Notes: a model not told the origin generated them from the sequence alone. Numbered from the stretch's first letter, positions 35,227 through 59,246 are shown. The stretch: DNA of 60,388 bases from an uncultured Enterobacteriaceae bacterium (GCA_964627075.1 CAZVHU010000001.1:6454-66841), one strand, 5' to 3'. A program made the numbers and translations.

Positions 35227-36169
35227 GCCGGGCGCGAAGGAAAAGGGCGCGGCCAAGACCGCGCGCATCCCGGTGAAGATCGTGCCACGTGCGGCGCTGA
35301 AAAAGCCGCCCTGGATCCGGGTGCGGGCCGCCGCCGAGGGCTCGCGCTTCTACGACATCAAGCGCATCCTGCGCGCGCAGCGCCTGCACACCGTGTGCGA
35401 GGAAGCCTCGTGCCCGAACATCGGCGAGTGCTTCGGCAAGGGCACCGCCACGTTCATGATCCTCGGCGACGTGTGCACGCGCCGCTGCCCGTTCTGCGAC
35501 GTGGCGCACGGCCGGCCGCTTGCGCCCGACGCCGAGGAGCCGCGGCATCTCGCAGAGACGGTAGCGCGGCTGGGACTTCGCTACGTCGTCGTGACGAGCG
35601 TGGACCGCGACGACCTGAAGGACGGCGGCGCGGCGCATTTCGCAGATTGCATCCGCGAGCTGCGCGCGCGCACGCCCGGCACCACGATCGAGGTGCTGGT
35701 GCCGGACTTCCGCGGGCGCCTGGAGCGCGCGCTCGAGCCGCTCGCCGCGGCGCCGCCGGACGTCATGAACCATAACCTCGAGACCGTGCCGCGCCTTTAC
35801 CGCGCCGCGCGCCCCGGGGGCGACTACGCGCATTCGCTCGTGCTGCTGCGCGAGTTCAAGCAGCGCTGCCCCGCGGTTCCGACCAAGTCGGGATTGATGG
35901 TGGGCCTGGGCGAGCGTGACGAGGAGATCGTGCAGGTGATGCGCGACTTGCGGGCACACGGCGTGGAGATGCTCACCATCGGCCAGTACCTCGCGCCGTC
36001 GGCGCACCACCTGCCGGTCGAGCGCTACGTGCACCCGGACACCTTCGCCCTGTTCGAGCGCGAGGCCGCGGCGCTCGGCTTCAGGCACGCGGCGATCGGG
36101 CCGCTGGTGCGCTCCTCCTACCACGCCGACCGCCAGGCGCACGAGGCGGGCGTACCAGGCGCAGTGTAA
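35219..36169 (+). CDS. lipA: Lipoyl synthase
   Basis: 316 aa. It has the auxiliary cluster [12 protein letters not shown] and the radical-SAM CTRRCPFC. Its TAA stop lies inside the palindrome at 36163. Confidence 0.96.
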
Positions 36170-36185
36170 AGTCATGCTTTACACT
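36163..36185 (-). repeat. 23-bp AT-rich palindrome, copy a: AGTGTAAAG-TCATG-CTTTACACT
   Basis: Read directly, with perfect 9-bp arms. The minus orientation is assigned from the spacer consensus. Confidence 0.9.
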
Positions 36186-36206
36186 CCGGCCATTGGGAGC
36201 CGCCGC

Positions 36207-36899
36207 ATGAGGACCCTTGCGCTTCGCTTTCTTGCTGCCGCCGCGCTTGGCGGCTGCGTTGCGGCCGCCCCCGCCGCGAGCCTCGACAGGATCTCCAACC
36301 AGGAGGCGATCGGCGGCCTGAAGGCCGCGCTCGAAAAGGGCTCGGCAGTCGCGGTCGCCAACCTCGGCCGCGCCGACGGCTACTTCGGCAACGACAAGGT
36401 GAAGATCCCGCTGCCGGAGTCGCTCAAGCGCACCGAGCGCCTGATGCGCACCGTCGGCATGGGCAAGTACGCCGACGAGCTGGTCCTCACCATGAACCGC
36501 GCGGCCGAAGCTGCGGTGCCCGAGGCGAAGGCGCTGCTGGTGGACTCGGTGAAGAAGATGAGCGTGCAGGACGCCAAAGGCATCCTCACCGGCGGCGACA
36601 CGGCGGGCACCGAATATTTCAGGCGCACCACCTCCGAGCCGCTGCGCGCGAAGTTCCTGCCGATCGTGCAGCAGGCGACGAGGAAGGTGAAGCTCGCCGA
36701 AAGCTACAACAACTACGCCGGGCAGGCCGCGAAGTACGGGCTGCTATCGAAGGAGGACGCCAACCTCGACGCCTACGTCACGCAGAAGGCGCTCGACGGC
36801 CTGTACTTCATGATCGCCGAGGAGGAAAAGAAGATCCGCAAGGACCCGGTCGGCGCCGGCAGCGACCTGATCAGGAAGGTCTTCGGCGCCCTGAAGTAG
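36207..36899 (+). CDS. DUF4197-like secreted protein
   Basis: The ATG at 36207 is preferred: GGGAG lies 8 nt upstream and the signal peptide MRTLALRFLAAAALGG follows. The ATG at 36174 lies in the palindrome spacer. The family call is from memory of DUF4197 sequences (GLKAALEKG...KIPLPESL). Confidence 0.65.
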   Translation: MRTLALRFLAAAALGGCVAAAPAASLDRISNQEAIGGLKAALEKGSAVAVANLGRADGYFGNDKVKIPLPESLKRTERLMRTVGMGKYADELVLTMNRAAEAAVPEAKALLVDSVKKMSVQDAKGILTGGDTAGTEYFRRTTSEPLRAKFLPIVQQATRKVKLAESYNNYAGQAAKYGLLSKEDANLDAYVTQKALDGLYFMIAEEEKKIRKDPVGAGSDLIRKVFGALK

Positions 36900-36910
36900 C
36901 TCCTCTGTCG

Positions 36911-36968: not shown

Positions 36969-37100
36969 CTATTCGATCACCCGGTCGGCGCGCAGGAGCA
37001 GCACCTGCGGAACGGTCAGCCCGATCGCCTCGCGGCTTTTCACTCGCCGGAGTCTGCGCCTGAACCTGCGCCACGGATCGATGGGTTTCCGCAGATTGGC
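36969..37100 (-). pseudogene. 3'-terminal relic of an ABC substrate-binding-protein paralogue
   Basis: The reverse strand reads ...VKSREAIGLTVPQVLLLRADRVIE*, against ...LKTAKAIGLAVPRSVLLRADRVIE* at the end of the 37991 gene. The upstream part is degenerate and has no start codon. Confidence 0.55.
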
Positions 37101-37128
37101 GCCGTGCTTCAAGGAGTAAGATTCCGCC

Positions 37129-37386
37129 ATGCAAAAGGCTGCTGCCCGGGCATTCCTCGCGCGCGACCGGGAGCGGGTCGCCGCGCTGAAAAGGGACTAT
37201 CACGCTCGGCGTTACCGGCGGACGCGCGGCAGGTCCGGGCTGGATGCGGGGCGCTCGCTGCGGCAACTCGCCCGCTCGGTCCGGCCCGACTGGCCGACGA
37301 AACGGGACCGCGCCGAGGACCTGGCGCATCACGTGGCGCTCAAGCGCTTGCTCGACCGCGCCGCGCATGCGTTCTGCGCTCGCTGA
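37129..37386 (+). CDS. Small Arg-rich hypothetical protein, upstream partner of the nucleotidyltransferase
   Basis: 85 aa. AAGGAG lies at 37111-37116. Third codon positions are mostly G/C. It overlaps the next gene by 20 nt. I recognise no family. Confidence 0.4.
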   Translation: MQKAAARAFLARDRERVAALKRDYHARRYRRTRGRSGLDAGRSLRQLARSVRPDWPTKRDRAEDLAHHVALKRLLDRAAHAFCAR

Positions 37387-37957
37387 GGCGCTCGCCGCCC
37401 TCGGGCGGGTGCTCGGCAGGCTGCGGGTTCGCTGGTACCTCTTTGGCGCACAGGCGGCGCTGCTCTACGGCGCAGCAAGGCTCACCGCCGACATCGATGT
37501 CACGGTGCAGATCGGCGAGCGGGGAACGGCCGGCCTGGCAAGAGCGCTCGAGCAGGCCGGATTCCGGCTTCGCGTTCGCGACGTCGCCGATTTCGTGGCG
37601 AAGACCCGCGTCCTGCCCTTCGTGCACGCCCGCTCCGGGATGCCGGTCGACATCGTCCTCGCGGGGCCCGGGCCGGAGGAGCTTTTCCTCAAGCGCCGCC
37701 GCCGCCGCCAGATCGAGGGGGTCACGGTCTTCGTCGCAAGCCCCGAGGATATCGTCGTCATGAAGATGCTCGCAGGCCGAGGCAAGGACGAAGACGACAC
37801 GCTGGCGATCCTTGCTGCTCGGCCGCGCCTGAAAATCGCAAGGATCCGGTCGACTCTCGATCTGCTCGAGCGCGCGCTCGGGCAAAGCGACCTCCGGCCG
37901 CGGTTCGAACAACTGCTCGCCCGCGCCCGGCCGGCGTCGGCGCGCAAGAGAAGTTGA
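37367..37957 (+). CDS. Pol-beta-fold nucleotidyltransferase-like protein
   Basis: 196 aa from MRSALAEA. It has the NTase loop LFGAQAALLYGAARLTADIDV (G-x-...-D-x-D), a later acidic strand PVDIVL, and SPEDIVVMKMLAGRGKDEDD, which recurs in uncharacterised NTase families (DUF6036-like, from memory). Confidence 0.6.
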   Translation: MRSALAEALAALGRVLGRLRVRWYLFGAQAALLYGAARLTADIDVTVQIGERGTAGLARALEQAGFRLRVRDVADFVAKTRVLPFVHARSGMPVDIVLAGPGPEELFLKRRRRRQIEGVTVFVASPEDIVVMKMLAGRGKDEDDTLAILAARPRLKIARIRSTLDLLERALGQSDLRPRFEQLLARARPASARKRS

Positions 37958-37990
37958 AGGCAGGCGCGCGCGGGGAAGCGCCGCGGCGCG

Positions 37991-38976
37991 CTACTCGATC
38001 ACCCGGTCGGCGCGCAGCAGCACGCTCCGCGGCACGGCGAGGCCGATCGCCTTGGCGGTCTTCAGATTCACCACCATCTCGAAGCGCGACGCCTGGTCCA
38101 CGGGCAGGCCGGCGGGCTTCGTCCCTTTCAGCACCCGCGCCATCATGTCGGCCGCGCGGCGCACGTCGTCCGTGAGGCTGGTTCCCAAGGAGGTCAAGCC
38201 GCCGCGCTCGACCATCTCGGCGTCGGAGAAGATCACGGGTATGCGCTGCCGGTCCGCGGCCTCGACGATGCGCTCCCCGGTGACGGGCGAATCGGCGAAC
38301 CAGGCGTACGGCACCAGCACATCGGCGCCGGCGGCGACGGCGCCGTCGACCGTTGTATCCCAGCCGGTGCGGTCCGCGGTCACGAACTCCATCAGATCGA
38401 TCGCAAGCCGGGCGGCGGTATTTCTCAGCTCGGGCGCCAAGGCGGCGAACTCGTCCGTGTGGGTTCTGCCAACCACGGCCACACGTTTCGCCCCGGGTAA
38501 CAGCTCCCGCGCGAGTTCCAGGCGCTTGTGCAGCAATTCGCCAAACCGGTTGCTCACCCCGGTGGCGTTGCCGCCTGGCCTCGCGTAGCTTCTCACGATC
38601 CCCGCAACGACCGGGTCCGGACCCACACGAACACGATCGGCACCGACTTTCTTGCCGCGATCGCGGCCTCGGCGGCTCGCGTCGAGAAGGCCAGGATCGC
38701 ATCCGCCCCGGCGGCCACTATGCGACGCACGTACTCGCGATCATCGCTGAAATCGCCGCTCTCGGCGCGCGCGTCGATCTCGAGGTTGCGTCCCTCGACG
38801 AAGCCGTGGCCCGCGAGCCGCTCGAGGAGCGCGGCGCGGTAGCGCTCCATGCCCGGGCCGCTCGCAAGCAGCACGCCGACGCGATAGGTCCGTGCCGTCT
38901 TCTGAGCGAGCGCGATCGGTGCCGCAAGCAGCGCGCTCGCGGCGAGCAGCAGTCTGCGTCGCCGGGTGTCGCTCAA
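37991..38976 (-). pseudogene. ABC transporter substrate-binding protein (PF04392-like), frameshifted
   Basis: Two ORFs (38593-38976 and 37991-38626) join into one protein. It has a signal peptide, YRVGVL, PIVFV|VGPDPVVAGIV...ARPGGNATG, and an LKTAKAIGL tail. One nucleotide is missing near 38625. A sequencing error cannot be excluded. Confidence 0.7.
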
Positions 38977-39028
38977 GGGCCCTCCCCCCGCGTTGGGGAA
39001 AGTCTGCTCCTGAAGCTGCGGAAGATGG

Positions 39029-39048
39029 GCTCCCGTTTTCGCGGGAGC
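39029..39048. repeat. Hairpin GCTCCCG-N6-CGGGAGC just downstream of the polA stop
   Basis: Read directly. On the minus strand it reads GCTCCCGCGAAAACGGGAGC, resembling the CCCCGC-GAAA-GCGGGG family. It has no U-tract. Confidence 0.5.
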
Positions 39049-39060
39049 GACGAACCGCGG

Positions 39061-41814
39061 CTAGTGCGCCTGGTCCCAGTTGTCGCCGGCGCCGACGTCC
39101 ACCACGAGCGCCACTTCGAGCTGGGCCACGCCTTGCATCAGGGCGCGCACCCTTTGCTTCACGGTTTCGAGCTCCGTGGCAGGCGCTTCCAGCACCAGCT
39201 CGTCGTGCACCTGCATGACGAGGCGCGTCTCGAGTTTCCCGTCGCGCAGCCAGCGGTCCACCGCCACCATCGCGAGCTTGATGAGGTCGGCCGCCGTGCC
39301 CTGCATCGGCGCGTTGATCGCAGCGCGCTCTGCGGCCTGGCGGCGCCCGGGCGAGCCCGACTTCATCTCCGGCAGCCTGAGCCGCCTGCCGAACACCGTC
39401 TCGACGAAGCCGTCGTTGCGCGCGCGCTCGCGGGTCTCGTCCATGAAGCGCTTCACGCCGGGGTAGCGCGTGAAGTAGGAGTCGATGTAGGCCTGCGCGG
39501 TGGCGCGCTCGATGCCGAGGGTCTGCGCCAGGCCAAAGGAGCTCATGCCGTAGATCAGGCCGAAGTTGATCGTCTTCGCCGCGCGGCGCTCGTCGGCGCT
39601 CACCTTGTCAAGCGGCACGCCGAACACCTCGGCGGCCGTGGCGCGGTGCACGTCGTCGCCGCGCGAGAAGGCTTTTCTCAGCCCCGCATCGCCCGAGAGG
39701 TGCGCCATGATGCGCAGCTCGATCTGTGAGTAATCCGCGCTCACGATCTTCCATCCGGGGGGCGCCACGAACGCCTCGCGGATGCGCCGGCCCTGCGGCG
39801 TGCGGATCGGGATGTTCTGCAGGTTGGGGTCCGTCGAGGCGAGGCGCCCGGTGACCGCGGTCGCCTGCGAGTAGGTGGTGTGCACGCGCCCGGTGGCCGG
39901 GTTCACCATGCGCGGCAGCTTGTCGGTGTAGGTGCTCTTCAACTTCGCGAGCGCGCGGTACTCGAGCAGGATCTTCGGCAGCGGGAAGTCGAGCGCGAGC
40001 TCCGCCAGCACGTCCTCGTCGGTGGAGGGTTGTCCCGACGGCGTCTTTTTCTTCACCGGCAGCTTCTGGCGCTCGAACAGGATCTCCTGGATCTGCTTGG
40101 GTGAATTCAGGTTGAACGGCTGCCCGGCGGCGTCGTAGGCCTTCTGCTCGAGCTCCAGCATCTCCTTGCCCAGCTCGTGGCTCTGCCGCTCGAGCTGCGC
40201 CGCGTCGAGCAGCACGCCGTGGCGCTCCATGCGCAGCAGCACCGGCAGCACCGGCAGCTCGATTTCCTCGTAGACCCGCTTGAGCTTTTCGTCCGCCGCG
40301 ATGCGCGGGTACATCGCCTCGTGCAGGGCGAGGGCGCAATCGGCGTCCTCGGCGGCATACTCGGTGGCGCGCCCGATCTCGACCGCCGAGAACGAAATGC
40401 GCGCTGCGCCTTTGCCGGTCACCTCGTCGTAGGAGATGGTCCTCCAGCCGAGGTGCCGCTGCGCGAGCGAGTCGAGGTCGTGCCGCTCGTGCACTTCCAG
40501 CACGTAGGACTCGAGCAGCGTGTCGTGCGCGATGCCGGCAAGCGCGACGCCGTGGTTCGCAACGACGTGGGCGTCGAACTTGGCGTTCTGCCCGACCTTG
40601 GCGCGCGCTGCATTCTCGAGCCACGGCCGCAGCACTTCGAGCGCACGCTCTGCGCCGACTTGCCGCGGCGCGCCGGGGTACTCGTGCGCGAGCGGCAGGT
40701 AGTGCGCAGTGTCGCCGAAGGCGAAGGACATGCCCACCAGCCTCGCGCTCATCGGCTCCAGACCCGTGGTCTCGGTGTCGAAGCCCACGAGCGGCGCGCG
40801 CTCGAGCCCTGCGGCGAGCGAGCGCAGCGCGGCCTCGTCCACTACTGTTGCGTACCTGCGCCGCGCCGGCCCCTCGCCCGGCACGACCGGCGCGGATGCG
40901 CCCTCCCGCGGCATTGCCGCCACAGCCGGCGGCGCGGCGAAACGCCGCTCGCCGTCGGATGCTGCGGGCACGCCGCCTTCCAGCTCGCGCAGCCAGCTCT
41001 TGAAGCCGTGGCGCTCGAAAAGCTCCCTCAGCTTCGCGTTGTCCGGGCCGCCGTCCTGCAACCGGGCGAGCGAGGTGGCAAGTGTAAAGTCACGCTTTAC
41101 AGTGAGGAGCCTGCGGCCCCGCGGCAGCCAGTCCAGGGTCGCGCGCAGGTTTTCTCCCGCGACGCCCGGGATCTCGGCGGCGTGCGCGATCACCCCGTCG
41201 AGCGAGCCGAACTGCTGGATCCACCTTGCGGCGGTCTTGGGACCGACCTTGGGAACGCCCGGCACGTTGTCCACACTGTCGCCCACGAGCGCGAGGTAGT
41301 CGACGATCCTCTCGGGCGGCACGCCGAATTTCGCCCGCACCGCGGCCGGGTCGAGCGTCTCGTTCGACATGGTGTTGACCAGCGTCACGCTGGCGTCCAC
41401 CAGCTGCGCCAGGTCCTTGTCGCCGGTGGAGATGACGCAGCGCCAGCCGGCGCGCTTCGCTTGCTCGGCGAGCGTCGCGATGACGTCGTCGGCCTCGATG
41501 CCCTCGATCGCGAGCACCGGCCAGCCCAGCGCTGCGACGATTTCCTTCAGCGGCGCGATCTGCGCCGCGAGATCGTCGGGCATCGGCGGGCGGTTCGCCT
41601 TGTACTGCGGATATTCCTCGTCGCGGAAGGTCTTGCCCGGCGCGTCGAACACGCAGGCGCGGGCTTGCGCCTTGTAGTCGGCGGCGAGCCGCCTTAGCAT
41701 GTTGACCACGCCGTAGATCGCGCCGGTCGGCTCGCCGCGCGCATTCTTCAGCTCCGGAAGCGCGTGGAAGGCACGGTACAGGTACGACGAGCCGTCAACC
41801 AGCAGGAGAGTCTT

Positions 41815-41823
<9 letters not shown>
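39061..41823 (-). CDS. polA: DNA polymerase I
   Basis: 920 aa from the GTG at 41823 (VSHKTLLLVDGSSYLYRAFHA). It has a 5' nuclease domain, a 3'-5' exonuclease domain (VGFDTETTGL) and polymerase motifs (DYSQIELRIMAH, QVHDELV). Confidence 0.95.
41081..41103 (-). repeat. 23-bp AT-rich palindrome, copy b, inside the polA coding sequence: AGTGTAAAG-TCACG-CTTTACAGT
   Basis: Read directly, with 8/9 arm complementarity. It encodes T-V-K-R-D-F-T-L of PolA. Confidence 0.9.
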
Positions 41824-42531
<708 letters not shown>

Positions 42532-42549
42532 TCCGGTAGAATCCCCGCC

Positions 42550-42885
42550 ATGCGCCGCCTGATCCTTCTCTGCGCCGCGTGCGCAGCCACGGCGGCGTTC
42601 GCGCAGCAGCCTCCGAAGCTCGAGCCGCTGGCCGAGCCGCCGCCGCCGCCGCCGGGCGTGCGCGACATCGCGCCCGACGAGCCGCGCGTGCGCATCGCGC
42701 CGCAGGAAGGCGACCAGGTGGAGGAGATCCGCGACGGCGGCCGCGTGATCATGATCAAGGTGACGCCTCCCGGCGGCGTGCCGTACTACCTCATCGACAC
42801 CACCGGCAGCGGCAACTGGATGCGCCGCGACTCGCTCGACGACGGCGTGCGCGTGCCAATGTGGCCGATCTTCACCTTCGACTGA
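42550..42885 (+). CDS. DUF2782-like small secreted protein
   Basis: 111 aa with a signal peptide, a Pro-rich stretch, and YYLIDTTGSGNW. Confidence 0.6.
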   Translation: MRRLILLCAACAATAAFAQQPPKLEPLAEPPPPPPGVRDIAPDEPRVRIAPQEGDQVEEIRDGGRVIMIKVTPPGGVPYYLIDTTGSGNWMRRDSLDDGVRVPMWPIFTFD

Positions 42886-42886
42886 T

Positions 42887-43861: not shown

Positions 43862-43885
43862 GAGCGGCAACGGGAAAGGGAGGGC

Positions 43886-48488: not shown

Positions 48489-48493
48489 GGCGC

Positions 48494-50591: not shown

Positions 50592-50624
50592 CGCCGCCAT
50601 CCAAGGTCGGCGCCGAGGCGGGTC

Positions 50625-50752: not shown

Positions 50753-50892
50753 GCCCCGCCCCGGCGGCGGCACAGGGACGCGAGCGCATATACAGACGTC
50801 GGGTGCTCGCGAACGCCGATTCCTGCAGTCACGCATGCGACGGATTCATCGCGACCGCGCCCGCAGCGGCGCGCCTTGGGATGGGGAAATGA

Positions 50893-50915
50893 AGTGTAAA
50901 GAGTGACTTTACACT
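50893..50915 (+). repeat. 23-bp AT-rich palindrome, copy c: AGTGTAAAG-AGTGA-CTTTACACT
   Basis: Read directly, with perfect arms. It lies 87 nt upstream of the 51002 ATG. Confidence 0.9.
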
Positions 50916-51001
50916 CTGCCCGCCTGGCGCCGGCGCTCGAACCAGCTCCCGGATTGGGGCGTAGACTTTGCGGTGATTGCTCTGTAACGGAGGGCGCTGC
51001 G

Positions 51002-51992
51002 ATGCAAACCCTACGCAGGCAGCTGCTGATTGCCGCGGGCACCCTGCTCGCGACGCCACTTGCCCGCGCGCAGATATCGCCAAAGCTGCGGCGGATCGGG
51101 CACCTGCAGCTCAATCCCTATGCCGATGGCGTGCAGAAATGGTGGCTCGCAGGGCTGCAGCAAGCAGGCTACGAGCATGGAAAAAAATCTTCTGGTTGAA
51201 TGGCGTTCTGCCGAGGGCGATGCAGGGCGCCTGCCCGCCCTTGTCGATGAACTCGTGCGCCTCAACGTCGAGTTGCTCGTGGCTATTTCCAGTGACGCCG
51301 AAGATGCGGCCAAGCAGGCGTCCCGAACGATCCCCATCGTGACGTTTGGGACCACCTTTCCGATCGAGCGGGGATTGATCAAGAGCTTCGCGCGCCCGGG
51401 CGGCAACATTACCGGAACGGTCTGGTTCGTCGACCCGGAAGTCACGTTTTCAAAGCAATACCAGATCTTCAAGGACGCCGTGCCCGGCGCGAGCCGGGTG
51501 TACGCTTTGTACTATGGCGCGGATCCGGCTTTGCGATTCTGGGATAGAGCGCTTGAACGTCGCCTGGCGAAGGCGATGGGGTTGACCGTGCAGGATTTCC
51601 CGCTACACCGACCTGAGGCCGTGAAGCCGACGCTCGAGCGCATCGCTTCCAGTCGACCGGATGTGCTCTCGGTATCAGGCAATGTTCAGGCCTCTCTTGG
51701 AGCGTTCCCGGAAATCGCCGCGTTCGCTCTGCAGCATAAGCTCGTGTCGTACTCGGAAAGCGAACGCTACCCTCGTTTCGGCGGACTGCTTTCCTATGGA
51801 CCAAACTTTCTTGGCTTGCGGGAGTTCATGGTCAGCTACGTTGACAGGATCCTGCGCGGAGCCAAGGCCGCCGATCTGCCTGTCCAGCAGACGACAAAGT
51901 GGGATTTGGTGCTCAACGCCAAGACCGCTCAGGCCATCGGATTCAGGCCGCCGCCCGCGTTCATGCTGCAAGTGACGCGTCAGATCGAATGA
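51002..51992 (+). pseudogene. ABC transporter substrate-binding protein (PF04392-like) paralogue, frameshifted in an A7 run
   Basis: The ORFs 50903-51199 (from the Met at 51002) and 51030-51992 join if the A7 at 51181-51187 is read as A6: ...AGYEHGK|NLLVEWRSAEGD.... It has a signal peptide, IPIVTFG, ARPGGNITG, and an LNAKTAQAIGF tail. It is visibly less GC-rich than its neighbours. Confidence 0.7.
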
Positions 51993-52036
51993 AGCGTCGG
52001 GCAATCGACGTGCTCGCAGTGGACGCGGGCAGGCAA

Positions 52037-52059
52037 AGTGTAATGCGTGGCTTTACACA
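52037..52059 (+). repeat. 23-bp AT-rich palindrome, copy d (degenerate): AGTGTAATG-CGTGG-CTTTACACA
   Basis: Read directly, with 7/9 arm complementarity. It lies 45 nt downstream of the 51992 stop. Confidence 0.8.
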
Positions 52060-52237
52060 TTGGCCCGCGGACACCGCCAACCGCTGCGCGCCGTCCGACG
52101 TTGCCGCAAGGGGTCCCCATCGGGCCGCGCGGAGCCGCGCCGCGGGCGGAGGGAGCAGACCGAGCACTGTCTGAGCCCGTAAGAGGAGTAGGGCGAGTTG
52201 CGCAGGTCTCCGACGATCGCGGCAATGAGGCGAGGGT

Positions 52238-52286
52238 AAAGAAAATCGGGGACAGACCCGGAAGGCAGGTCTGTCCCCGATTTTCT
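52238..52286. terminator. Perfect 20-bp hairpin (9-nt loop), probably a bidirectional intrinsic terminator
   Basis: AAGAAAATCGGGGACAGACC-cggaaggca-GGTCTGTCCCCGATTTTCTT. It has a GC-rich upper stem. The AT-rich lower stem gives a U-rich tail on either strand. Confidence 0.6.
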
Positions 52287-52382
52287 TCGCGGCCCTGGGG
52301 AAGGCGGTAACGTCGGGCGGCGCGCGGGCGCGCCTGAAGGTGTTCTGCATATAATCGCCGCCAAACTCGTGCGCCGGCCGCC

Positions 52383-53837
52383 ATGCTGATCGCTTTCGTC
52401 GCGCTCTACCTCGTGCTCACCATCGCGGTCGGGCTGTGGGCGGCGGCGCGGGTGCACAACACGAAGGACTATGTGCTCGCGGGGCGGAGCCTGCCGCTGT
52501 ACATGAGTGCGGCGACGGTCTTCGCCACCTGGTTCGGCGCCGAGACCGTGCTCTCGGTCTCCGCGACCTTCTCGCGCGACGGCCTTGGCGGCATCGTCGC
52601 GGACCCCTTCGGCTCGTCGTTCTGCCTGCTGTTCGTGGCGCTTTTCTTCGCGCGCGCCTTCTACCGCATGGACCTGCTCACGATCGGCGACTTCTACCAC
52701 CGGCGCTACAACAAGCCGGTGGAGGTGGCCACCAGCCTCGCGATCACGGTGTCGTACCTGGGCTGGACCTCGGCGCAGCTCACCGCGCTCGGGCTGGTGC
52801 TGTCCGTCGTTTCGGGCGGCGCGATCTCGCTCGAGACCGGGATCTACCTCGGCACCGCGATCGTGCTCGGCTACACCATCTGGGGCGGCATGTGGTCGGT
52901 GGCGATGACCGACCTGGTGCAGTCGGTGGTGATCCTCATAGGCCTCGCGCTGGTGGCGTGGCTGGTGGCCGACATGGCGGGCGGCGCCGGCAAGGTGATC
53001 GCCGCCGCCGCGCAGGCCGGCAAGTTCGAGTTCTGGCCCAAGGGCGGAACCAGGGAGTGGCTCGCCTTCCTCGCCGCCTGGATGACGCTCGCCATCGGCT
53101 CGATCCCGCAGCAGGACGTGTTCCAGCGCGTCACCTCGGCGAAGAACGAGAAAACCGCCGTGCGCGGCTGCCTGATCGGCGGCGCGGTGTACTTCTCCTT
53201 CGCCTTCGTGCCGATCTTCATCGCCTACGCGGCGCTGGTCATCGATCCCGGCTACGGCAAGCTGTTCGCGGGCGAGGACGCGCGCGAGATCCAGAGGATC
53301 CTGCCCAGCCTGATCCTCGACAGAACGCCGCTGTGGGCGCAGGTGCTGTTCTTCGGCGCGCTGCTCTCGGCGATCCTCTCCACCGCGTCGGGCGCGCTGC
53401 TCGCGCCGACGTCGCTGTTCACCGAGAACGTGATCCGGCCGTTCGCCCACCGCATGAGCGACCGCCAGTTCCTGCTGCTCTTGAGGGTGGTGCTCGCCAC
53501 CTTCTCGCTCGCGGCGCTCGTCTTCGCGCTCAACTCGCGCAGCACCATGTACGAGATGGTGCAGAACGCCTACAAGGTGACGCTGGTGTCGTGCGTGGTG
53601 CCGCTCGCCGCGGGGCTGTGGTGGAAGCGCGCCGACGTCGCGGGCGCGGTGCTCGCGGTCGCGTTTGGCCTCGCGTCCTGGGGCGCGGCCGAGATGCTCG
53701 CCGCGGACGCCACCGTGCCGCCGCAGCTCGTGGGCCTCGGGTTCTCGGCGCTCGGCATGCTGCTCGGCGCATACCTGCCGCGGCCGGGCGGGGCGCGCGC
53801 CGCGGCGCATCCCGCGGCGCACGAGCCGCGCAGATAG
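52383..53837 (+). CDS. Sodium:solute symporter family (SSF) transporter
   Basis: 484 aa and polytopic. The N-terminal region DYVLAGRSLPLYMSAATVFATWFGAETVL is typical of SSF. The substrate is not assignable. Confidence 0.85.
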   Translation: MLIAFVALYLVLTIAVGLWAAARVHNTKDYVLAGRSLPLYMSAATVFATWFGAETVLSVSATFSRDGLGGIVADPFGSSFCLLFVALFFARAFYRMDLLTIGDFYHRRYNKPVEVATSLAITVSYLGWTSAQLTALGLVLSVVSGGAISLETGIYLGTAIVLGYTIWGGMWSVAMTDLVQSVVILIGLALVAWLVADMAGGAGKVIAAAAQAGKFEFWPKGGTREWLAFLAAWMTLAIGSIPQQDVFQRVTSAKNEKTAVRGCLIGGAVYFSFAFVPIFIAYAALVIDPGYGKLFAGEDAREIQRILPSLILDRTPLWAQVLFFGALLSAILSTASGALLAPTSLFTENVIRPFAHRMSDRQFLLLLRVVLATFSLAALVFALNSRSTMYEMVQNAYKVTLVSCVVPLAAGLWWKRADVAGAVLAVAFGLASWGAAEMLAADATVPPQLVGLGFSALGMLLGAYLPRPGGARAAAHPAAHEPRR

Positions 53838-53844
53838 CGCGCCC

Positions 53845-54903
53845 GTGCGGCCGTCGCCGCTCGCCGGTTTCCTGCTCGCCGCCTACAGCCTGCTCGTCGT
53901 CTACGCGTCGCTCTACCCGCTCGCGGAGTGGCGCGACCCGGGCGTATCGGCGCTTGCGTTCCTGACTGCACCCTGGCCTCGCTACCTCACCGCGTTCGAT
54001 CTCGGCGCCAACGTCTTCGGCTACGCGCCCTACGGCCTGCTCGCAGCGCTCGCGGTGCACCCGCGCCTGCGGGGCGCCGGCGCGGTGCTGCTCGCCGCGG
54101 TCACGGGCGGGGCGCTCGCGCTCGCCCTCGAGGCCGCGCAGAGCTACCTGCCCGCGCGCATCGCATCCAACGTGGACCTGCTCGCCAACCTTGCCGGCGC
54201 CGCGCTCGGCGGCATCGCCGGCGTGCTCGCCGCGCCCTGGCTGCTGGGGGAGGGGCCGCTCAAGCGCCTGCGCGCATCGTCGTTCCTCCCCGGCGCGGAA
54301 ATCGACCTCGGGCTCACCCTGCTCGGCCTGTGGCTGTTTGCGCAGCTCAGTCCCGCGACGCTGCTGTTCGGCGCCGGCGACCTGCGCGACCTGCTTGCCG
54401 CCGAGGGCGTCGAATACGGCGCCGAGCTGTTCATCTCGGTCGAGGCGGCGATCGCCGCGGCAAACCTCCTGGCGGTGACTCTGCTCGCCTCGGCGATGCT
54501 CGCCCCGGGGGCCCCGGCGCACGCGCTGTGCAGCGCGCTCGTCGTCGCTGCGCTCGCGGTGAAGACGCTCGCGTTCGCCATCCTGATGCGGGCCGAGGAC
54601 GTGTTCGCGTGGCTCACGCCGGGCGCGCAGCATGGCCTTGCGGCGGGATTCGTGCTGATGCTCGCGGCGGTGGCGCTGCCGCGCACGGCGCGCCTTGCGA
54701 TCGCCGCGATGCTGCTCATGACAGCGACCGTGCTGGTGAACCTTGCGCCGCCCAATCCCTACCTCGCCGCGATCCTCAAGGTCTGGGCGCAAGGCCATTT
54801 CCTCAACTTCAACGGCCTCACGCACCTGGTGTCGGCGATCTGGCCGTTCGCGGCGCTCGCCTACCTGTTCTACCTCGCCTCGCGCCGCGCGCGCGAACGG
54901 TAG
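53845..54903 (+). CDS. VanZ-like family membrane protein
   Basis: 352 aa from the GTG at 53845. It has a VanZ-like N-terminal core (NVFGYAPYGLL...EAAQSYLPARIASNVDLLAN) followed by extra TM segments. Confidence 0.65.
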   Translation: MRPSPLAGFLLAAYSLLVVYASLYPLAEWRDPGVSALAFLTAPWPRYLTAFDLGANVFGYAPYGLLAALAVHPRLRGAGAVLLAAVTGGALALALEAAQSYLPARIASNVDLLANLAGAALGGIAGVLAAPWLLGEGPLKRLRASSFLPGAEIDLGLTLLGLWLFAQLSPATLLFGAGDLRDLLAAEGVEYGAELFISVEAAIAAANLLAVTLLASAMLAPGAPAHALCSALVVAALAVKTLAFAILMRAEDVFAWLTPGAQHGLAAGFVLMLAAVALPRTARLAIAAMLLMTATVLVNLAPPNPYLAAILKVWAQGHFLNFNGLTHLVSAIWPFAALAYLFYLASRRARER

Positions 54904-54915
54904 AATGCCGGCCCC

Positions 54916-55224
54916 ATGTCCTACTACCAGCGCCACATCTTCTTCTGCTGCAACCAGCGCGACGACGGCCGGCCCTGCTGCCAGTCCAAGGGCGCGGTCC
55001 AGATGCGCGACTACGCCAAGGGCCGCGTCAAGGCGCTCGGCCTCGCCGGCGCGGGCAAGGTGCGCGTCAACCAGGCGGGCTGCCTGGACCGCTGCGAGGA
55101 GGGGCCCTGCGTCGTGGTGTACCCGGAGGCGGTCTGGTACACCTACGTGGACCGCTCCGACATCGACGAGATCATCGGCGAGCACCTGCAGAACGGCCGC
55201 ATCGTAAAGCGGTTGCGGATCTGA
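54916..55224 (+). CDS. Thioredoxin-like [2Fe-2S] ferredoxin-domain protein
   Basis: 102 aa. Cys ligands lie in HIFFCCNQR...PCC and [11 protein letters not shown]. Confidence 0.75.
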
Positions 55225-55829
55225 TGCGGCCCGCCACCCGGCGCGAGCTCGTTCCCGGGCCGGCCGGACGCATCGAGTGCGCGGTGGACGCGCCGCAGGG
55301 CGAGCCGCGCGGCGTGGCGCTGGTCGCGCACCCGCATCCGCTCTACGGCGGCACGCTCGACAACAAGGTGGTCACGACCCTCTCCCGCGCGCTGGCGGAC
55401 CTCGGCTACGAGTCCTGGCGGCCCAACTTCCGCGGCGTCGGCGCAAGCGAAGGCGCCCACGACGAGGGGCGCGGCGAGGTCGAGGACCTCGCGGCGGTGC
55501 TCGCGCACGCTCGCGGCCGCGCCGACCACGCGCCGCCGGTGCTGGCGGGCTTTTCCTTCGGCGCCGCGATGCAGGCGCGGCTCGCGCCGCGCGTTCCCGG
55601 CGCGCGCCTGGTGCTGGTCGGCGTCGCGGTCAATCACCTGGAGGCGCCCGCGGTGCCGGCCGGCACGCTCGTCGTGCATGGCGCGAACGACGACACCGTG
55701 CCGCTCGCCGCGGTGCTCGCGTGGGCCGAACCGCAGGAGCTGCCGGTGGTGGTGCTCCCCGGGACCGATCACTTCTTCCACCGGCGGCTCCATCTCCTGC
55801 GCGCCATCGTGCGCCAGCACCTGCGATGA
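55224..55829 (+). CDS. Alpha/beta-fold hydrolase
   Basis: 201 aa. It has [14 protein letters not shown], the nucleophile-elbow-like GFSFGA, and C-terminal HGANDD...DHFF. Start and stop are coupled to both neighbours. Confidence 0.7.
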
Positions 55830-56746
55830 GGGCAACCGAGCCGGCGCTTTCGGTGCGCGGCCTGAGGAAGCGCTACGGCGAGCAGGAAGTCGTGTGCGGC
55901 GTGGACCTCGAGGTGGCGCCGGGCGAATGCTTCGGCCTGCTGGGCCCGAACGGCGCGGGCAAGACCACCACCTTGAAGTTGTGCCTGGGGCTCACCGACC
56001 CGGACGCGGGCGAGGTGCGCCTCCTCGGGCACGAAGTCCCGGCGCGCGCGCGCGAGGCGCGCGCCCAGGTGGGCGTGGTGCCGCAGTTCGACAACCTGGA
56101 CCCCGACTTCACCGTCGCCGAGAACCTGGTCGTGTTCGGCCGCTACTTCGGGCTGCCCGCGAGGCAAATCGAGGCGCGCATGCCCGAGCTGCTCGAATTC
56201 GCCGGGCTCGCCGGACGCGCCGACGCCCGCATCCAGGCGCTCTCGGGCGGCATGAAGCGGCGCCTCACGCTCGCGCGCGCGCTCGTCAACGAGCCGCGGC
56301 TGCTGTTCATGGACGAGCCGACCACGGGCCTGGACCCGCAGGCGCGCCACCTCATCTGGGAGCGGCTGCGGCGGCTGACGCAGGAGGGGCGCACGCTCGT
56401 GCTCACCACGCACTTCATGGAGGAGGCCGAGCGGCTGTGCACGCGCGTCGCGATCATGGACCGCGGCCGCGTTATCGCCGAGGGCAGCCCGCGGGCGCTG
56501 ATCGCCGGGCACATCGAGCCGCAGGTGGTGGAGGTGCACGGGCCGGGGACCGATGCCTGGGCAGGGCGCGCCCGCTCGCTCGCGGCGCGCATCGAGCGCG
56601 TGGGCGAGACCGCGTTCTGCTACGCCGCGAGCGTGGAGCCGCTGCTCGCCAGCCTGCGCGAGCAGCCCGTGCTCGTGTATCTTCACCGGCCAGCGAACCT
56701 CGAGGACGTGTTCTTGAAGCTCACTGGCCGAGACCTGCGAGACTGA
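55826..56746 (+). CDS. ABC transporter ATP-binding protein (ABC-2/NodI-like)
   Basis: 306 aa. It has Walker [10 protein letters not shown], the signature LSGGMKRRL and Walker B LLFMDEPT. Confidence 0.92.
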
Positions 56747-56777
56747 GCGCATGCGAAGCGAGCAAGCGAGGCCCGTC

Positions 56778-56835
56778 ATCCCCGCGCAGGCGGGGATCCC
56801 GCATCGGCGTATCGGGGCCCCCGCTTTCGCGGGGG
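56778..56835. repeat. Two GC-rich REP-like hairpins in opposite orientation: ATCCCCGC-GCAG-GCGGGGAT (56778-56797) and CCCCCGC-TTTC-GCGGGGG (56818-56835)
   Basis: Read directly. They lie in the 99-nt spacer between the ABC ATPase and permease genes. Confidence 0.85.
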
Positions 56836-56845
56836 GGACGACCCG

Positions 56846-57631
56846 GTGAACGCCCGCCTCTACGCGCTGCCCGCGCTCAGCCCGCGCCTCGCCGCGGTGT
56901 GGCGGCGGCACTTCCTCGTCTGGCGCAAGCTCGCCGTGCCCTCGATCCTGGGCAACCTCGCCGATCCCTTGATCATGCTCTTCGGCCTGGGCTACGGCCT
57001 GGGCGCGGTGCTCGGCGACATGGGCGGCACGAGCTACTTCGCGTTCCTCGCCGCCGGCTTCGTCGCCTCGGCCACGATGTACGCGGCGACCTTCGAGTCG
57101 CTGTTTTCGGCGTTCTCGCGCATGCACGTGCAGAAGACCTGGGAGGCGATCGTCAACGCGCCGATGACGCTGGAAGACGTGCTCGCCGGCGAGTGGACCT
57201 GGGCGGCGACCAAGGCGCTCGCCGCGGGCATCTGCATGCTGGCGGTGATTGCGGCGTTCGGCTATGCGAGCTTTCCGCTCGCGCTCGCCTCGCTGCCGGT
57301 GATCGCGCTGATCGGCCTCGCCTTCGGCGCGCTCGGCCTCGCGATCAACGCGCTCGCCACGGGCTACGATTTCTTCAGCTACTACCTGACGCTGGTGTTG
57401 ACGCCGATGATGATGCTCTCGGGCGTGTTCTTCCCGCTGGAGCAACTTCCCGCCGCGGTGCAGGCGGTGGCGCAGGCGCTGCCGCTCGCGCACGGCGTGG
57501 CGCTGGTGCGGCCGCTGCTCGCCGGCCAGCTGCCGGCCGGCGCGCTGCTGCACGTCGCGGTGCTGGCGGGCTACGCAGCGGCGGGCTTCTATCTCGCCAC
57601 GGTGCTGACGCGCCGGCGGCTCCTCGCCTGA
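56846..57631 (+). CDS. ABC-2 type transporter permease (NodJ-like)
   Basis: 261 aa, GTG start, with six hydrophobic segments. It follows the NodI-like ATPase. Confidence 0.85.
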   Translation: MNARLYALPALSPRLAAVWRRHFLVWRKLAVPSILGNLADPLIMLFGLGYGLGAVLGDMGGTSYFAFLAAGFVASATMYAATFESLFSAFSRMHVQKTWEAIVNAPMTLEDVLAGEWTWAATKALAAGICMLAVIAAFGYASFPLALASLPVIALIGLAFGALGLAINALATGYDFFSYYLTLVLTPMMMLSGVFFPLEQLPAAVQAVAQALPLAHGVALVRPLLAGQLPAGALLHVAVLAGYAAAGFYLATVLTRRRLLA

Positions 57632-57633
57632 GC

Positions 57634-58050
57634 ATGCTCCTCGTCAAGTCGCTGCACATCGTCTTCATGGTGACCTGGTTCGCGGGGCTTTTCTACCTGC
57701 CGCGGCTTTTCGTCTACCACTCGCTCGCCGAGGACCGCATCTCCATCGAGCGCTTCAAGGTCATGGAGAGAAAGCTCTTCTGGGGCATCACGACCCCGGG
57801 CGGCGTGCTGGCGCTCGCCTTCGGCGTCTGGCTGTGGCTCGGCTGGTTTCCCGGCGCCGGCGGCTGGCTCCATGCCAAGCTCGCGCTCGCCGCGGCGCTC
57901 GCCGGCTACCACCTCTGGTGCGGCAAGCTGATGCTCGAGTTCCGCAACGAGCGCAACACCCGCAGCCACGTCTGGCTGCGCTGGTTCAACGAGTTCCCGG
58001 TGCTGGTGCTGTTCGGCGCGGTGTTCCTGGTTGTCTACAAGCCCTTCTGA
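57634..58050 (+). CDS. hemJ: HemJ-type protoporphyrinogen oxidase (UPF0093/CopD-like)
   Basis: 138 aa from MLLVKSLHIVFMVTWFAGLFYLPRLFVYH, a typical HemJ N-terminus. Confidence 0.8.
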   Translation: MLLVKSLHIVFMVTWFAGLFYLPRLFVYHSLAEDRISIERFKVMERKLFWGITTPGGVLALAFGVWLWLGWFPGAGGWLHAKLALAAALAGYHLWCGKLMLEFRNERNTRSHVWLRWFNEFPVLVLFGAVFLVVYKPF

Positions 58051-59230
58051 GGCGTTCTTCGCCCCGTGCCCGCGGGGCCTGGAGCAGCTGCTCGCGGGCG
58101 AGCTCGGCGCGCTCGGCGCGCGCCATGCCGCCGCGGTGCCGGGGGGCGTCGCGTTCGCCGGCAACTGGGAAGCCTGCTACCGCGCCAATCTCTGGTCGCG
58201 CGTCGCCTCGCGCGTGCTGTGGCGCGTGGCGCAATTCGACTACGCGAGCGAGACCGACCTCTACGAAGCCGCCCGGGCCGTCGACTGGCCGGCGCTCTTT
58301 TCGGTCGCGCGCACGATCCGCGTCTACGTCACGGCGCAGAAGAGCCCGCTCAGGAGCCTCGAGTTCGCCACCCTCAAGGTGAAGGACGCGGTCTGCGACC
58401 GCTTCCGCGACGCGCAGGGCCGCCGCCCCAGCGTGGACCGCGCCGCGCCCGAGGTGCGCGTGCACGCGTTCCTCGAGGAAGAGCGCGCCACGCTCTACCT
58501 GGACACCTCGGGCGAGCCGCTCTTCAAGCGCGGCGCGCGCGCAGACACGGTAAGAGCGCCGCTGCGCGAGAACCTCGCGGCGGGGATCGTGCTGCTGTCG
58601 CGCTGGCAGCCCGGCGAGCCGCTGCTCGACCCGATGTGCGGCGGCGCGACGCTGCTTGCCGAGGCCGCGGCGATCGGCCGCGGCCGCGCGCCGGGCCTGA
58701 AGCGCGCCTTCGGCTTCGAGAAGCTCGCCGGGTTCCAGCCGGCGCTCTGGAAGCGGCTGCGCGAGGAGGCTGCGCACCCCGCGAAGAGCGCCGTGAAGCT
58801 CGAGCTCTACGGCTCCGACACCGACGAGCGCGCGCTCGCCGCCGCGCGCCGCAACCTCGCCGCGGCAGGAGTGGAGCGCTGGGTGCGCCTGGAGCGCGCC
58901 GACGTGCTCGAGCGCACTGCGCCCGCGCCCGCCGGGGTGATGATCGCCAACCCGCCCTACGGCGAGCGCACCGGCGCGCGCGAAGACCTCGCCCGCTTCT
59001 ACCCGAGGCTCGGGGACGCTCTGAAGAAGAACTTCGCCGGCTGGCGCTGCCACGTCTTCACCGCCGACCCGCGGCTGCCGAAGCTGATACGCCTGGAGCC
59101 CGCGCGGCGCGTGCCGCTGTGGAACGGCGCGCTCGAGTGCCGCCTCTACGAGTTCAGGATCGTCGCCGGCTCGCACCGCGGCCGCGCGCGGGGCGGCGGG
59201 GCGCAGCAGGCCGAAACGCGGCAACTGTAA
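58031..59230 (+). CDS. THUMP-domain class I SAM-dependent RNA methyltransferase (RlmL N-terminal-half-like)
   Basis: 399 aa with a TTG start overlapping hemJ. It has FFAPCPRGLE, DPMCGGATLL and NPPYGER. Its TAA stop lies in the left arm of the palindrome at 59224. Confidence 0.8.
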   Translation: MSTSPSEAFFAPCPRGLEQLLAGELGALGARHAAAVPGGVAFAGNWEACYRANLWSRVASRVLWRVAQFDYASETDLYEAARAVDWPALFSVARTIRVYVTAQKSPLRSLEFATLKVKDAVCDRFRDAQGRRPSVDRAAPEVRVHAFLEEERATLYLDTSGEPLFKRGARADTVRAPLRENLAAGIVLLSRWQPGEPLLDPMCGGATLLAEAAAIGRGRAPGLKRAFGFEKLAGFQPALWKRLREEAAHPAKSAVKLELYGSDTDERALAAARRNLAAAGVERWVRLERADVLERTAPAPAGVMIANPPYGERTGAREDLARFYPRLGDALKKNFAGWRCHVFTADPRLPKLIRLEPARRVPLWNGALECRLYEFRIVAGSHRGRARGGGAQQAETRQL

Positions 59231-59246
59231 AGGCAGACTTTACACT
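59224..59246 (+). repeat. 23-bp AT-rich palindrome, copy e: ACTGTAAAG-GCAGA-CTTTACACT
   Basis: Read directly, with 8/9 arm complementarity. It spans the 9-nt gap between two convergent genes. Confidence 0.9.

Follow-up and report, generated by a model that had tools for sequence, protein, structure and literature searches.

Five near-identical AT-rich palindromes stand out in a genome of 71% GC, which raises the question of what they are and which protein, if any, they serve. Within the window (the whole 60,388-nucleotide stretch of DNA analysed here), TGTAAAG-N5-CTTTACA occurs five times, with the positions and sequences reported in a first-pass annotation. A search with TGTAAAGNNNNNCTTTACA that allowed up to two mismatches returned exactly these five copies, against 0.00 expected from 100 dinucleotide-preserving shuffles; with three mismatches allowed, it again returned five, with 0.06 expected. 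No half-site stands alone, as all TGTAAA and TTTACA hexamers of the 60-kb window fall within the palindromes. The family extends to a related metagenome-assembled genome (MAG), CAYMVA01, which is about 78-80% identical to the window at the nucleotide level in syntenic DNA and carries at least 56 exact copies (18/18), and metagenomes contribute about 95 further copies in high-GC DNA. The five palindromes genuinely belong to a conserved family, found in a small group of uncultured Burkholderiales and numbering roughly 100-300 copies in each genome. A literature search found no described element with this consensus, in agreement with the annotation.

The placement first read from the sequence, with two copies at gene ends, one inside polA and two around a small island, is correct throughout. 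Copy a (36163..36185, plus strand; AGTGTAAAG-TCATG-CTTTACACT) carries the stop codon of the lipoyl synthase gene lipA (35219..36169, plus strand) as the TAA of its left arm, such that the last lipA codons extend into its outer arm and core; a DUF4197 gene starts 21 nt downstream. Copy e (59224..59246, strand unassigned, spacer orientation ambiguous) lies between convergent genes, and the TAA in each arm is a stop codon: an RlmL-like THUMP methyltransferase gene (58031..59230, plus strand) terminates in one arm and a DUF938 methyltransferase gene (59240..59869, minus strand) in the other. Copy b (41081..41103, plus strand) is within the DNA polymerase I gene polA (39061..41823, minus strand), and on the coding strand it reads in frame as ACT GTA AAG CGT GAC TTT ACA CTT, or TVKRDFTL. 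Copies c (50893..50915) and d (52037..52059), both on the minus strand, form the left and right borders of a lower-GC island (0.65 versus 0.71) with a frameshifted ABC_sub_bind-like pseudogene (51003..51992, plus strand) that shares 70% identity with a paralogue in locus L025. Copy c, which follows ubiB at a distance of about 300 nt, matches the family consensus in its island-side flank only. Copy d adjoins a repeat of about 280 bp, has a positional counterpart in a MAG locus (L066) and is the most diverged copy in the window, with two mismatches to the 18-nt consensus.

The unit is polar, and it is longer than first described. When 65 family members of the window and the related MAG are taken together, the spacer tallies as T57 C59 A56 C49 G40/A23, giving a consensus of TCACR (complement YGTGA) that upholds the polarity claimed from the five copies. 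The 23-bp unit originally proposed is real as a shared core, but it forms the centre of a module of about 59 bp, for which intergenic copies give the imperfectly palindromic consensus cgGGgcgC.g..gGcCaA-AGTGTAAAGTCACGCTTTACACT-TtGgCc..c.GcggCCgg. Arm pairing within a copy's own flanks (9.9) is not above pairing across copies (10.3), so the flanks share a sequence consensus and not mere complementarity. Most copies lie 0-26 nt past stop codons, with peaks of stop-to-core spacing at -7, 7-8 and 18-19 nt; of 140 copies, 75 mark the 3′ end of a gene and only 3, the higA operators themselves aside, occupy divergent promoter regions. About 17% of copies fall within coding sequence. In loci not chosen by the motif, the density is about one per 15 kb (5 non-operator copies in about 73 kb).

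Relatives were compared at the three loci that the annotation had singled out, namely the lipA 3′ end, polA and the gap between ubiB and the symporter gene. Copy a has orthologues at the same lipA junction in L084, L091 and the MAG locus L058, and across these four lineages the core is 92% identical versus 70% for the flanks. Among the family matches listed, 56 have no mismatch, eight have one and one has two, and the next matches are background only, with six or more; degenerate copies are thus nearly absent. Together with the better conserved lipA core, this near-absence shows selection on the core and speaks against decaying junk. At polA, relatives form a graded series, from ACG GTG AGG CGC GAC GTC GCG CTG in L086, through ACG GTG AAG CGC GAC TTT GCG CTT in L085, to the full palindrome shared by L084 and the window. 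The series contains no indel, some substitutions lead to rare codons although GC3 is about 0.9, and most of 120 PolA homologues keep the peptide TVKRD[VLF]xL (exact string counts). These alignments indicate that copy b was built in place by graded substitution, and that a perfect copy was assembled within polA in spite of strong codon bias is itself a sign of selection. A copy in the gene for CusB is also present without a change in length. In L086, ubiB directly adjoins the SSF symporter gene.

The same sequence recurs in front of toxin-antitoxin genes. At higBA of Rheinheimera, Arsukibacterium and a Chromatiaceae MAG, the exact palindrome is found between the promoter hexamers; in two other MAGs, one from Comamonadaceae and one from Bacteroidetes, the higB start follows it by 3-8 nt. 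A promoter scan at the higBA palindrome called TTGATA-17-TACACT around it. It occupies a promoter-operator position at HigA-type helix-turn-helix (HTH) genes in four independent lineages, which makes a dimeric regulator or nucleoid-protein site the best supported of the three explanations that the annotation had offered. This link to higBA operators is not visible from the window alone.

The repeat-bearing genomes encode a solo 97-amino-acid HigA-type HTH (XRE) protein, 89-96% identical within its clade and at most 64% identical to the next homologues. Its best matches among solved structures are the HigA and GraA antitoxins (E down to 7e-10; 4MCX, 6CHV, 2ICP and 6F8H), and a Pfam match also supports a HigA-family HTH. 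Across several locus variants, the family palindrome is always found upstream of the ATG with the same geometry, between a -35-like TTGCAA and a -10 TACACT that is formed by the right arm, and the ATG follows this -10 by 6-7 nt. The promoter scores 8/12 and was not called by the promoter scan. The repeat-rich MAG CAYMVA01 itself has a solo higA with the palindrome as operator, on contig CAYMVA010000124.1. Solo higA contigs also come from the three JGI samples that gave the window's contigs, and they carry further dispersed copies; the window's genome itself is linked to solo HigA by co-occurrence in these same three samples only. No HMM match to a HigB toxin gene was found in any high-GC locus.

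Because their core is identical to the solo higA promoter sequence, the dispersed palindromes are most likely candidate binding sites of solo HigA, positioned mainly just past stop codons. We give a probability of roughly 55% to the view that they make up a genome-wide set of predicted high-affinity sites for an orphan antitoxin-like repressor. The 23-bp palindrome would then serve as operator to its cognate HigA-type protein, which is lineage-specific and toxin-less, and the solo higA promoter would be autorepressed and probably leaderless. The operator sequence would have multiplied over the chromosome to about 100-300 copies, usually as the centre of the ~59-bp module 0-26 nt past stops and sometimes within genes. 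The protein is predicted from the shared operator sequence to bind these dispersed copies, and selection would keep them near-perfect because a HigA-like dimer would bind them. Some features speak against such a network: the shared ~59-bp flanks and fixed stop-to-core spacings resemble the spread of a duplicative unit more than sites that evolved independently, and the sites of symmetric dimers do not usually have a spacer that is both asymmetric and strongly conserved. Moreover, HigA homologues at 53-56% identity (L222 and L223) are without the palindrome, so operator specificity cannot be read from HigA family membership.

As to what binding might do, our preferred guess, a speculative one, is a protein-occupied boundary at gene ends. 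Such a boundary could act as a roadblock where genes converge or follow one another in tandem, stopping read-through; alternatively, it might keep silent the -10-like TACACT with which each arm faces the neighbouring gene. A more far-reaching version, possible but on balance doubtful, is that orphan HigA has been co-opted chromosome-wide, with the 100-300 or so selected operators, at gene ends and a few coding positions, serving as protein-dependent transcription boundaries, or as releasable antisense promoters should a labile antitoxin-like protein be degraded. In both forms it would be a toxin-free offshoot of a toxin-antitoxin circuit with genome-wide reach. We know of no precedent for a regulon of near-perfect gene-end sites, nor of any other antitoxin operator that has spread into a network of sites across a genome.

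Comparison with characterized antitoxins shows where the family departs from them. HigA dimers bind inverted repeats that overlap their own promoters (PMC12266136, PMC6393540). As with the operators of Proteus vulgaris Rts1 HigA (O1/O2) and Pseudomonas putida GraA, the inverted repeat here overlaps the hig core promoter, both at solo higA and at higBA of other phyla. The binder of the known operators is a dimeric XRE-type HTH protein; here it is predicted, with solo HigA as candidate, and for MAG CAYMVA01 a HigA-family HTH is encoded in the same genome. The GraA operator is 33 bp long, and the core here with its GGCAA/TTGCC flanks also spans 33 bp (PMC6393540), whereas the published GraA sequence, with its TAACGTTA centre, is unlike the family palindrome. 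Known hig operators number one or two and sit at their own promoter, in contrast to the roughly 100-300 sites here, mostly at gene 3′ ends with some in coding DNA; the five window copies share the operator sequence but not the position at a hig promoter. Unlike in known HigA systems, no toxin gene lies beside solo higA, so that the adjacent HigB of a type II toxin-antitoxin pair is absent. MqsA, HipB and P. aeruginosa HigA are antitoxins with chromosomal sites beyond their own promoters (PMC4803016), but these are few promoter sites of variable quality, whereas the sites described here are many, near-identical, at gene ends and avoid promoters.

The strongest alternative, which we consider rather unlikely, is a selfish palindromic element of the REP or MITE type, about 59-67 bp long, moved by a transposase (RAYT or other) encoded elsewhere and tolerated at gene ends, with the higA promoter copy and the operator likeness secondary or the operator carried by the element. 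The REP-like interpretation given at first reading holds for appearance: like REP and REPIN-RAYT families, whose imperfect palindromes measure 20-40 bp and number in the hundreds, these are short, polar, lineage-specific extragenic palindromes, imperfect over their full length, present in about 100-300 copies per genome past stops and between convergent genes. The flank consensus and discrete stop-to-core spacings are as expected of such an element, stops seem to be supplied by it (TAA in the arms, TAG or TGA at the outer edge), and relatives that have the full element differ in the lipA C-terminus from those that do not. Copies also bracket lower-GC gene cassettes, both in the window (c-d) and in L071. 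The mechanism, however, fares poorly. The polA and CusB copies swap existing codons at unchanged length and are not inserted units, the tail of decayed copies is nearly absent, and the core is far better conserved than the flanks at an orthologous site. In further contrast to REP families, the core is AT-rich within GC-rich DNA, and no REPIN-style inverted doublets were seen. A phmmer search with E. coli TnpA-REP, which matches PDB 4ER8, found no RAYT (Y1 HUH transposase), whose gene in such families usually sits between repeats, at E<=10 in 1.03 Mb of high-GC DNA, which represents only part of any genome.

An RNA-level element, in which a 3′-UTR hairpin ends or stabilizes transcripts or is the target of an RNA-binding protein or RNase, is improbable. 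Location directly past stop codons and a modest preference for one orientation with respect to the upstream gene (38:20) would suit such a role, as would the extended hairpins of copies a, d and e, which fold better than shuffles (z -2.2 to -4.2); yet the fold of the polA copy is not significant (z -0.7), and elements in either orientation are frequent. What is conserved is the weak AT-rich inner stem and not the GC-rich outer one, and the GC-rich flanks lack the T-tract (U-tract in RNA) of a terminator. A scan of 40,400-60,388, which covers copies b-e, called no intrinsic terminator at any of the four, canonical terminators lie nearby, and the identical sequence sits as a DNA operator at hig promoters.

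A DNA-uptake signal built up through biased uptake and recombination in natural transformation, also raised at first reading, is a poor fit and very unlikely: in-place copies with rare codons inside genes where the protein tolerates them, a highly uniform core with a weaker flank consensus, and a window gene for the type IV pilus-associated protein FimW all favour it, but the density of about one per 15 kb compares with about one per kb for Neisseria DUS and Haemophilus USS, whose short non-palindromic cores occur singly in either orientation, the complete 9-5-9 palindrome never appears as a lone half-site, and the operator position at a regulator gene is left unexplained. An integron attC or tyrosine-recombinase core was rejected by inspection: such sites form same-orientation arrays with an integrase and have a 6-8 bp overlap region, whereas the palindromes lack RYYYAAC...GTTRRRY ends, have a 5-bp spacer and are scattered in mixed orientation among housekeeping genes.

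Noc NBS, SlmA SBS, matS and parS offer another comparison for candidate HigA sites. A genome has between a handful (parS) and several tens of these near-perfect palindromes, which are often intragenic and evolve in place under selection for a single dedicated protein. The family resembles them in its near-perfect palindromes, intragenic copies and in-place origin. It differs in that no ParB-, TetR- or MatP-type protein is implicated, and those sites lack its strong stop-codon anchoring and extended GC-rich arms.

Dispersed extragenic palindromes are common, and their function or origin is rarely tied to a specific protein; here, sequence connects the family with a named candidate for the binder, the solo HigA-type antitoxin homologue. 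If the predicted binding is true, this would be, as far as we know, the first such antitoxin-operator network. It would provide a model for the domestication of toxin-antitoxin parts, for the use of gene-end elements in GC-rich genomes and for the spread of binding-site families by copying versus point mutation. Despite the uncultured state of the organisms, the candidate operator-protein pair is suited to in vitro work.

The neighbours of solo higA are metal or ion-channel genes to one side and, to the other, genes for a thiolase or amidohydrolase. The same palindrome is also found ahead of MerR genes in Epsilonproteobacteria and of a reductase gene in Myxococcota, which suggests that other regulators may use it.

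All five 23-bp palindromes that the first-pass annotation had read in the window (TGTAAAG-N5-CTTTACA) are present at the positions, with the sequences and in the gene settings that it described. The window contains five such sites with up to two mismatches, against none in 100 dinucleotide-preserving shuffles, and still only five when three are allowed, against 0.06 expected from shuffles. Its G+C content is 71%, and every TGTAAA or TTTACA hexamer lies within the five palindromes, so isolated arms are absent. Copy a (36163-36185) sits at the 3' end of lipA and overlaps its TAA stop; copy b (41081-41103) lies in frame inside polA; copies c (50893-50915) and d (52037-52059), between ubiB and a sodium:solute symporter gene, flank a lower-GC, frameshifted ABC_sub_bind-like gene; and copy e (59224-59246) supplies both TAA stops of two convergent methyltransferase genes. 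Orientations are mixed (+, +, - and - for copies a to d, uncertain for e). That the island between c and d was a product of site-specific integration is unsupported, as the consensus flank of copy c points to the island and not to the chromosome. An Rfam scan of the window returned no family at gathering score.

The palindrome, AGTGTAAAGTCACGCTTTACACT with outer flanks GGCAA/TTGCC, belongs to a family that is large and lineage-specific. Among the matches listed for the exact 18 specified bases in GTDB species genomes, about 55 of 78 loci come from one metagenome-assembled genome, GCA_964393745.1 (hereafter the MAG; labelled Enterobacteriaceae, G+C 68%), which carries at least 56 dispersed copies and is ~78-80% identical to the window over one syntenic stretch. 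The nearest proteins to the window's PolA are from Burkholderiales MAGs, and five JGI metagenomes include contigs near-identical to the window. At least ~95 more high-GC copies came from a metagenome scan with the commonest spacer form; all copy counts from genome and metagenome scans are lower bounds. Viral contigs gave only two exact matches, both uninformative. Five non-operator copies in ~73 kb of loci not picked by the motif (L084, L217, L219, L225 and L212) suggest roughly 100-300 copies in each genome. Spacers show a strong preference for TCACG or TCACA, so the polarity claimed for the element is genuine. Copies that lie between genes have in common an imperfectly palindromic consensus of ~59 bp, cgGGgcgC.g..gGcCaA-core-TtGgCc..c.GcggCCgg. 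The outer arms show 9.9 paired positions within their own copy versus 10.3 across copies, and these flanks are therefore a sequence consensus rather than independent host hairpins; copy-specific complementarity, which would suggest insertion into existing host hairpins or structural covariation, was not seen. At two loci (L090, 1653; L115, 2012) the right arm is partly duplicated in tandem after a family copy (…CACTTTACACC TCACTTTACACT…).

Selection acts on the core of this family, and the core can arise in place. Across 490 kb of family-bearing DNA, 56 sites match the 18-nt consensus without mismatch, eight with one and one with two, none differs at three positions, one at four and two at five (two of these last three in L085), and at six to seven mismatches site counts equal those of shuffled sequence. 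The zero-mismatch class is inflated by loci seeded with the exact pattern, but the unseeded copies, from the window and the related locus L084, still differ from it at no more than two positions, for the most part by G/C at position 2 or 22. Four lineages share the copy between lipA and DUF4197, in which the 23-mer is 92% identical, against 70% for the adjoining 38 nt. Most of 120 PolA homologues retain the peptide TVKRD[VLF]xL, which is encoded as ACG GTG AGG CGC GAC GTC GCG CTG in L086 (from a sister lineage), ACG GTG AAG CGC GAC TTT GCG CTT in L085 and ACT GTA AAG CGT GAC TTT ACA CTT in L084 and the window. Length is unchanged throughout this series; several substitutions are synonymous, toward A/T-ending codons despite a genome GC3 of ~0.9, and one falls in the spacer. 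Read from these codons, the polA copy was made by substitution. A CusB-like gene copy likewise has eight codons replaced without an indel, and further coding copies, in pgi and an mnmC-like gene, share a frame that always gives (S/T)VK..FTL. The same frame and FTL tripeptide occur in a Lentisphaerae MAG (L073, 3767), where the palindrome encodes a prepilin N-terminal motif (MSVKHGFTLIELLVV); no prepilin-type ORF was found at the second copy there (4807).

Outside the clade, matches place the exact palindrome directly upstream of HigB-toxin/HigA-antitoxin operons or a lone higA (PF05015 and HTH_3/HTH_31) in five Rheinheimera species, Arsukibacterium, and Chromatiaceae, Comamonadaceae and Bacteroidetes MAGs. 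The palindrome-linked antitoxins share only ~35-38% identity across lineages, which implies that the association with hig has been kept or has arisen several times. In Rheinheimera, a promoter scan finds TTGATA-17 nt-TACACT, with the palindrome occupying the spacer and its right arm forming the -10 element. It is established that HigA dimers bind inverted repeats overlapping their own promoters (PMC12266136, PMC6393540). HigA homologues at 53-56% identity (L222 and L223) were checked and do not have the palindrome. Exact palindromes also lie ~47 nt upstream of MerR-family genes in three Epsilonproteobacteria loci (L005, L029, L063), ~28 nt upstream of a ferredoxin-reductase-like gene in two Myxococcota loci (L021 and L028, the latter with three copies within 3.5 kb) and ~30 nt upstream of a Ro60/TROVE-like gene on an IMG/VR viral contig (L088). 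As it precedes MerR and reductase genes too, the palindrome alone does not name its binder. Likenesses to the TyrR box (TGTAAA-N6-TTTACA), CRP, parS2 and LexA sites were considered and set aside, since spacing or arrangement differs and positions are not promoter-like.

A candidate binder is encoded within the clade itself. In the metagenome locus L187, a family copy in a divergent region lies 7 nt ahead of the ATG of a 97-aa HigA homologue (MPLPQPPSTPAVIQHPGDMVRQRIPASMSVTEAARRLGVSRQQLHALIDGRAAVTPRMALRLQAAFGPAAESWLVMQMHYDLSRARKSPPRGVKSIG) that lacks a HigB partner. HigA and HigB HMMs had matched nothing in the window or in the MAG loci searched before L187 and L225. This solo HigA belongs to a clade with 89-96% identity inside it and at most 64% to all else; among solved structures it is closest to HigA of Proteus and E. 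coli, VapI and GraA, and its alignment retains the conserved HPG motif and the helix-turn-helix. All loci examined, which include several protein variants and several neighbourhood variants, have the same upstream arrangement, GGGAGTTGC(A/C)A-ACTGTAAAGC(A/G)TGACTTTACACT-6/7 nt-ATG, whose -35/17/-10 geometry is that of Rheinheimera. This layout suggests a leaderless, self-repressed transcript; a simple promoter scan did not call the promoter (score 8/12). One solo higA lies on CAYMVA010000124.1, a contig of the MAG with at least 56 dispersed copies, which links the gene directly to the family. A second variant occurs on contigs of 24-58 kb, which come from three JGI samples in which the window's contigs are also found and which carry two more dispersed copies within 20 kb; through these shared samples, the window's own genome is a candidate carrier of solo higA.

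Among 140 non-redundant high-GC copies, with genes called by GC3 as a heuristic and not by annotation, 75 follow the stop codon of one or more genes by no more than 60 nt (17 of them between convergent genes), 24 fall within coding sequence and 7 in divergent promoter regions. Four of these seven are the solo higA promoter, and a fifth such promoter, in L214, was classed as 5'-end only. Stop-to-core distances peak sharply at -7 nt (n=13), where the arm's TAA is the stop codon, at 7-8 nt, and at 18-19 nt (n=15), where the outer arm directly adjoins the stop codon. Orientation relative to the upstream gene is mildly biased (38:20). The intrinsic terminator reading was rejected for want of a T-run: none of the four window copies in the scanned stretch was called, and canonical terminator hairpins occur nearby. 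A sigma-70 promoter reading of dispersed copies was also rejected, as their -35 position is GGCCAA or CGGCAA; the promoter tool misses even the solo-higA promoter. Near a solo higA locus, the annotated start of a metal-resistance gene, which encodes a CusF-like copper chaperone, coincides with a family copy (ATG GAC TGT AAA GTC ACG CTT TAC ACC; L219, 19454; L221, 11642). Its true start may be a downstream ATG, which would place the palindrome in the 5' region.

Read most simply, the dispersed palindromes would be binding sites of the orphan HigA-type repressor, and such binding would be what selection preserves; the binding step is one that we infer. At gene ends we favour, and hold loosely, a protein-occupied boundary, which might act as a roadblock limiting read-through between tandem or converging genes, or might repress the -10-like TACACT that each arm aims at the neighbouring gene. 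The shared 59-bp flanks, the fixed stop spacing and an altered lipA C-terminus suggest that a copying process of some kind spread many of the intergenic copies as units. The coding copies show that substitution can assemble sites as well, and both processes may be at work.

Several alternatives can be weighed against these observations. The proposal of a REP-like element mobilized by a RAYT transposase fits the appearance of the family, but a probe verified against PDB 4ER8 detected no RAYT in 1.03 Mb from incomplete genomes, doublets and a decay tail are absent, and copies arise in place. More generally, a purely insertional, decaying selfish repeat fails to account for the conservation of the core, the missing decay and the in-place coding copies. 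An RNA hairpin is disfavoured by folding only moderately above shuffles (z -0.7 to -4.2), by conservation of the weak AT stem and by the frequency of both orientations. The suggested DNA uptake signal is a poor fit: copies are too sparse, the motif occurs only as a complete palindrome and the operator position is left unexplained. An attC or recombinase site lacks its defining end motifs, and the copies are not in arrays. The binding-site reading resembles two known kinds of system, families of extragenic palindromes and antitoxins that also act outside their own promoter. Literature searches by motif string and by concept found no description of the motif, in agreement with the first-pass annotation, nor of an antitoxin operator that has multiplied into a family of dispersed repeats. 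The family supplies a testable protein-DNA pair.

Other features were seen in the window and around family copies. ARAGORN's single call, a doubtful tRNA-Pro(CGG) at 24001-24075 (-), is unrelated to the palindromes, lies inside a high-GC3 1842-aa ORF (20326-25854, +) and is probably a false positive. A conserved sequence, CCTGTAAAGTCACCCTTTACAAA, matched our search pattern by chance of its design and is unrelated to the family; it sits within repeated, apparently coding surroundings in low-GC freshwater contigs (L096, L102, L103, L106, L118 and ~20 other metagenome loci, ~40% GC). The lipA/DUF4197 neighbourhood gathers toxin-antitoxin-like modules. Relative to the MAG (L058) and L084, the window has an insertion at 37030-37991 with small upstream ORFs and an AbiEii/DUF6036-type nucleotidyltransferase gene, of a type IV toxin-like family; in L085 the neighbouring junction, between lipA and DUF4197, carries a degenerate palindrome whose left arm marks the exact site of a PIN-PhdYeFM pair, with a HEPN/NTase pair close by. 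The adjacent ABC_sub_bind substrate-binding gene (37991-39060) is split into two ORFs, intact in L084 and absent from L085 and L091, and is a probable pseudogene. A perfect hairpin at 52236-52290 (GAAAATCGGGGACAGACC-N9-GGTCTGTCCCCGATTTTC) is preceded by an A-run and followed by a T-run, and so resembles an intrinsic terminator that works in both directions; the same GGGGACAGACC hairpin recurs beside family copies at loci of the MAG and of metagenomes (L017, L035, L051, L066, L109, L142 and L158). The hairpin at 52236-52290 ends a ~280-bp repeat (52060-52325) that had no Rfam match and could be a small-RNA gene or leader family; it occurs twice more in the MAG locus L066 (78% and 73% identity), one copy between two family palindromes. 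Finally, in L071 a lower-GC GNAT acetyltransferase gene (2750-3720) between two convergent genes is flanked by inverted modules, each consisting of a GC hairpin (cttccccgcggaggcggggaccc) and a family palindrome; this hairpin also adjoins palindromes in L038, L113, L117 and L171.
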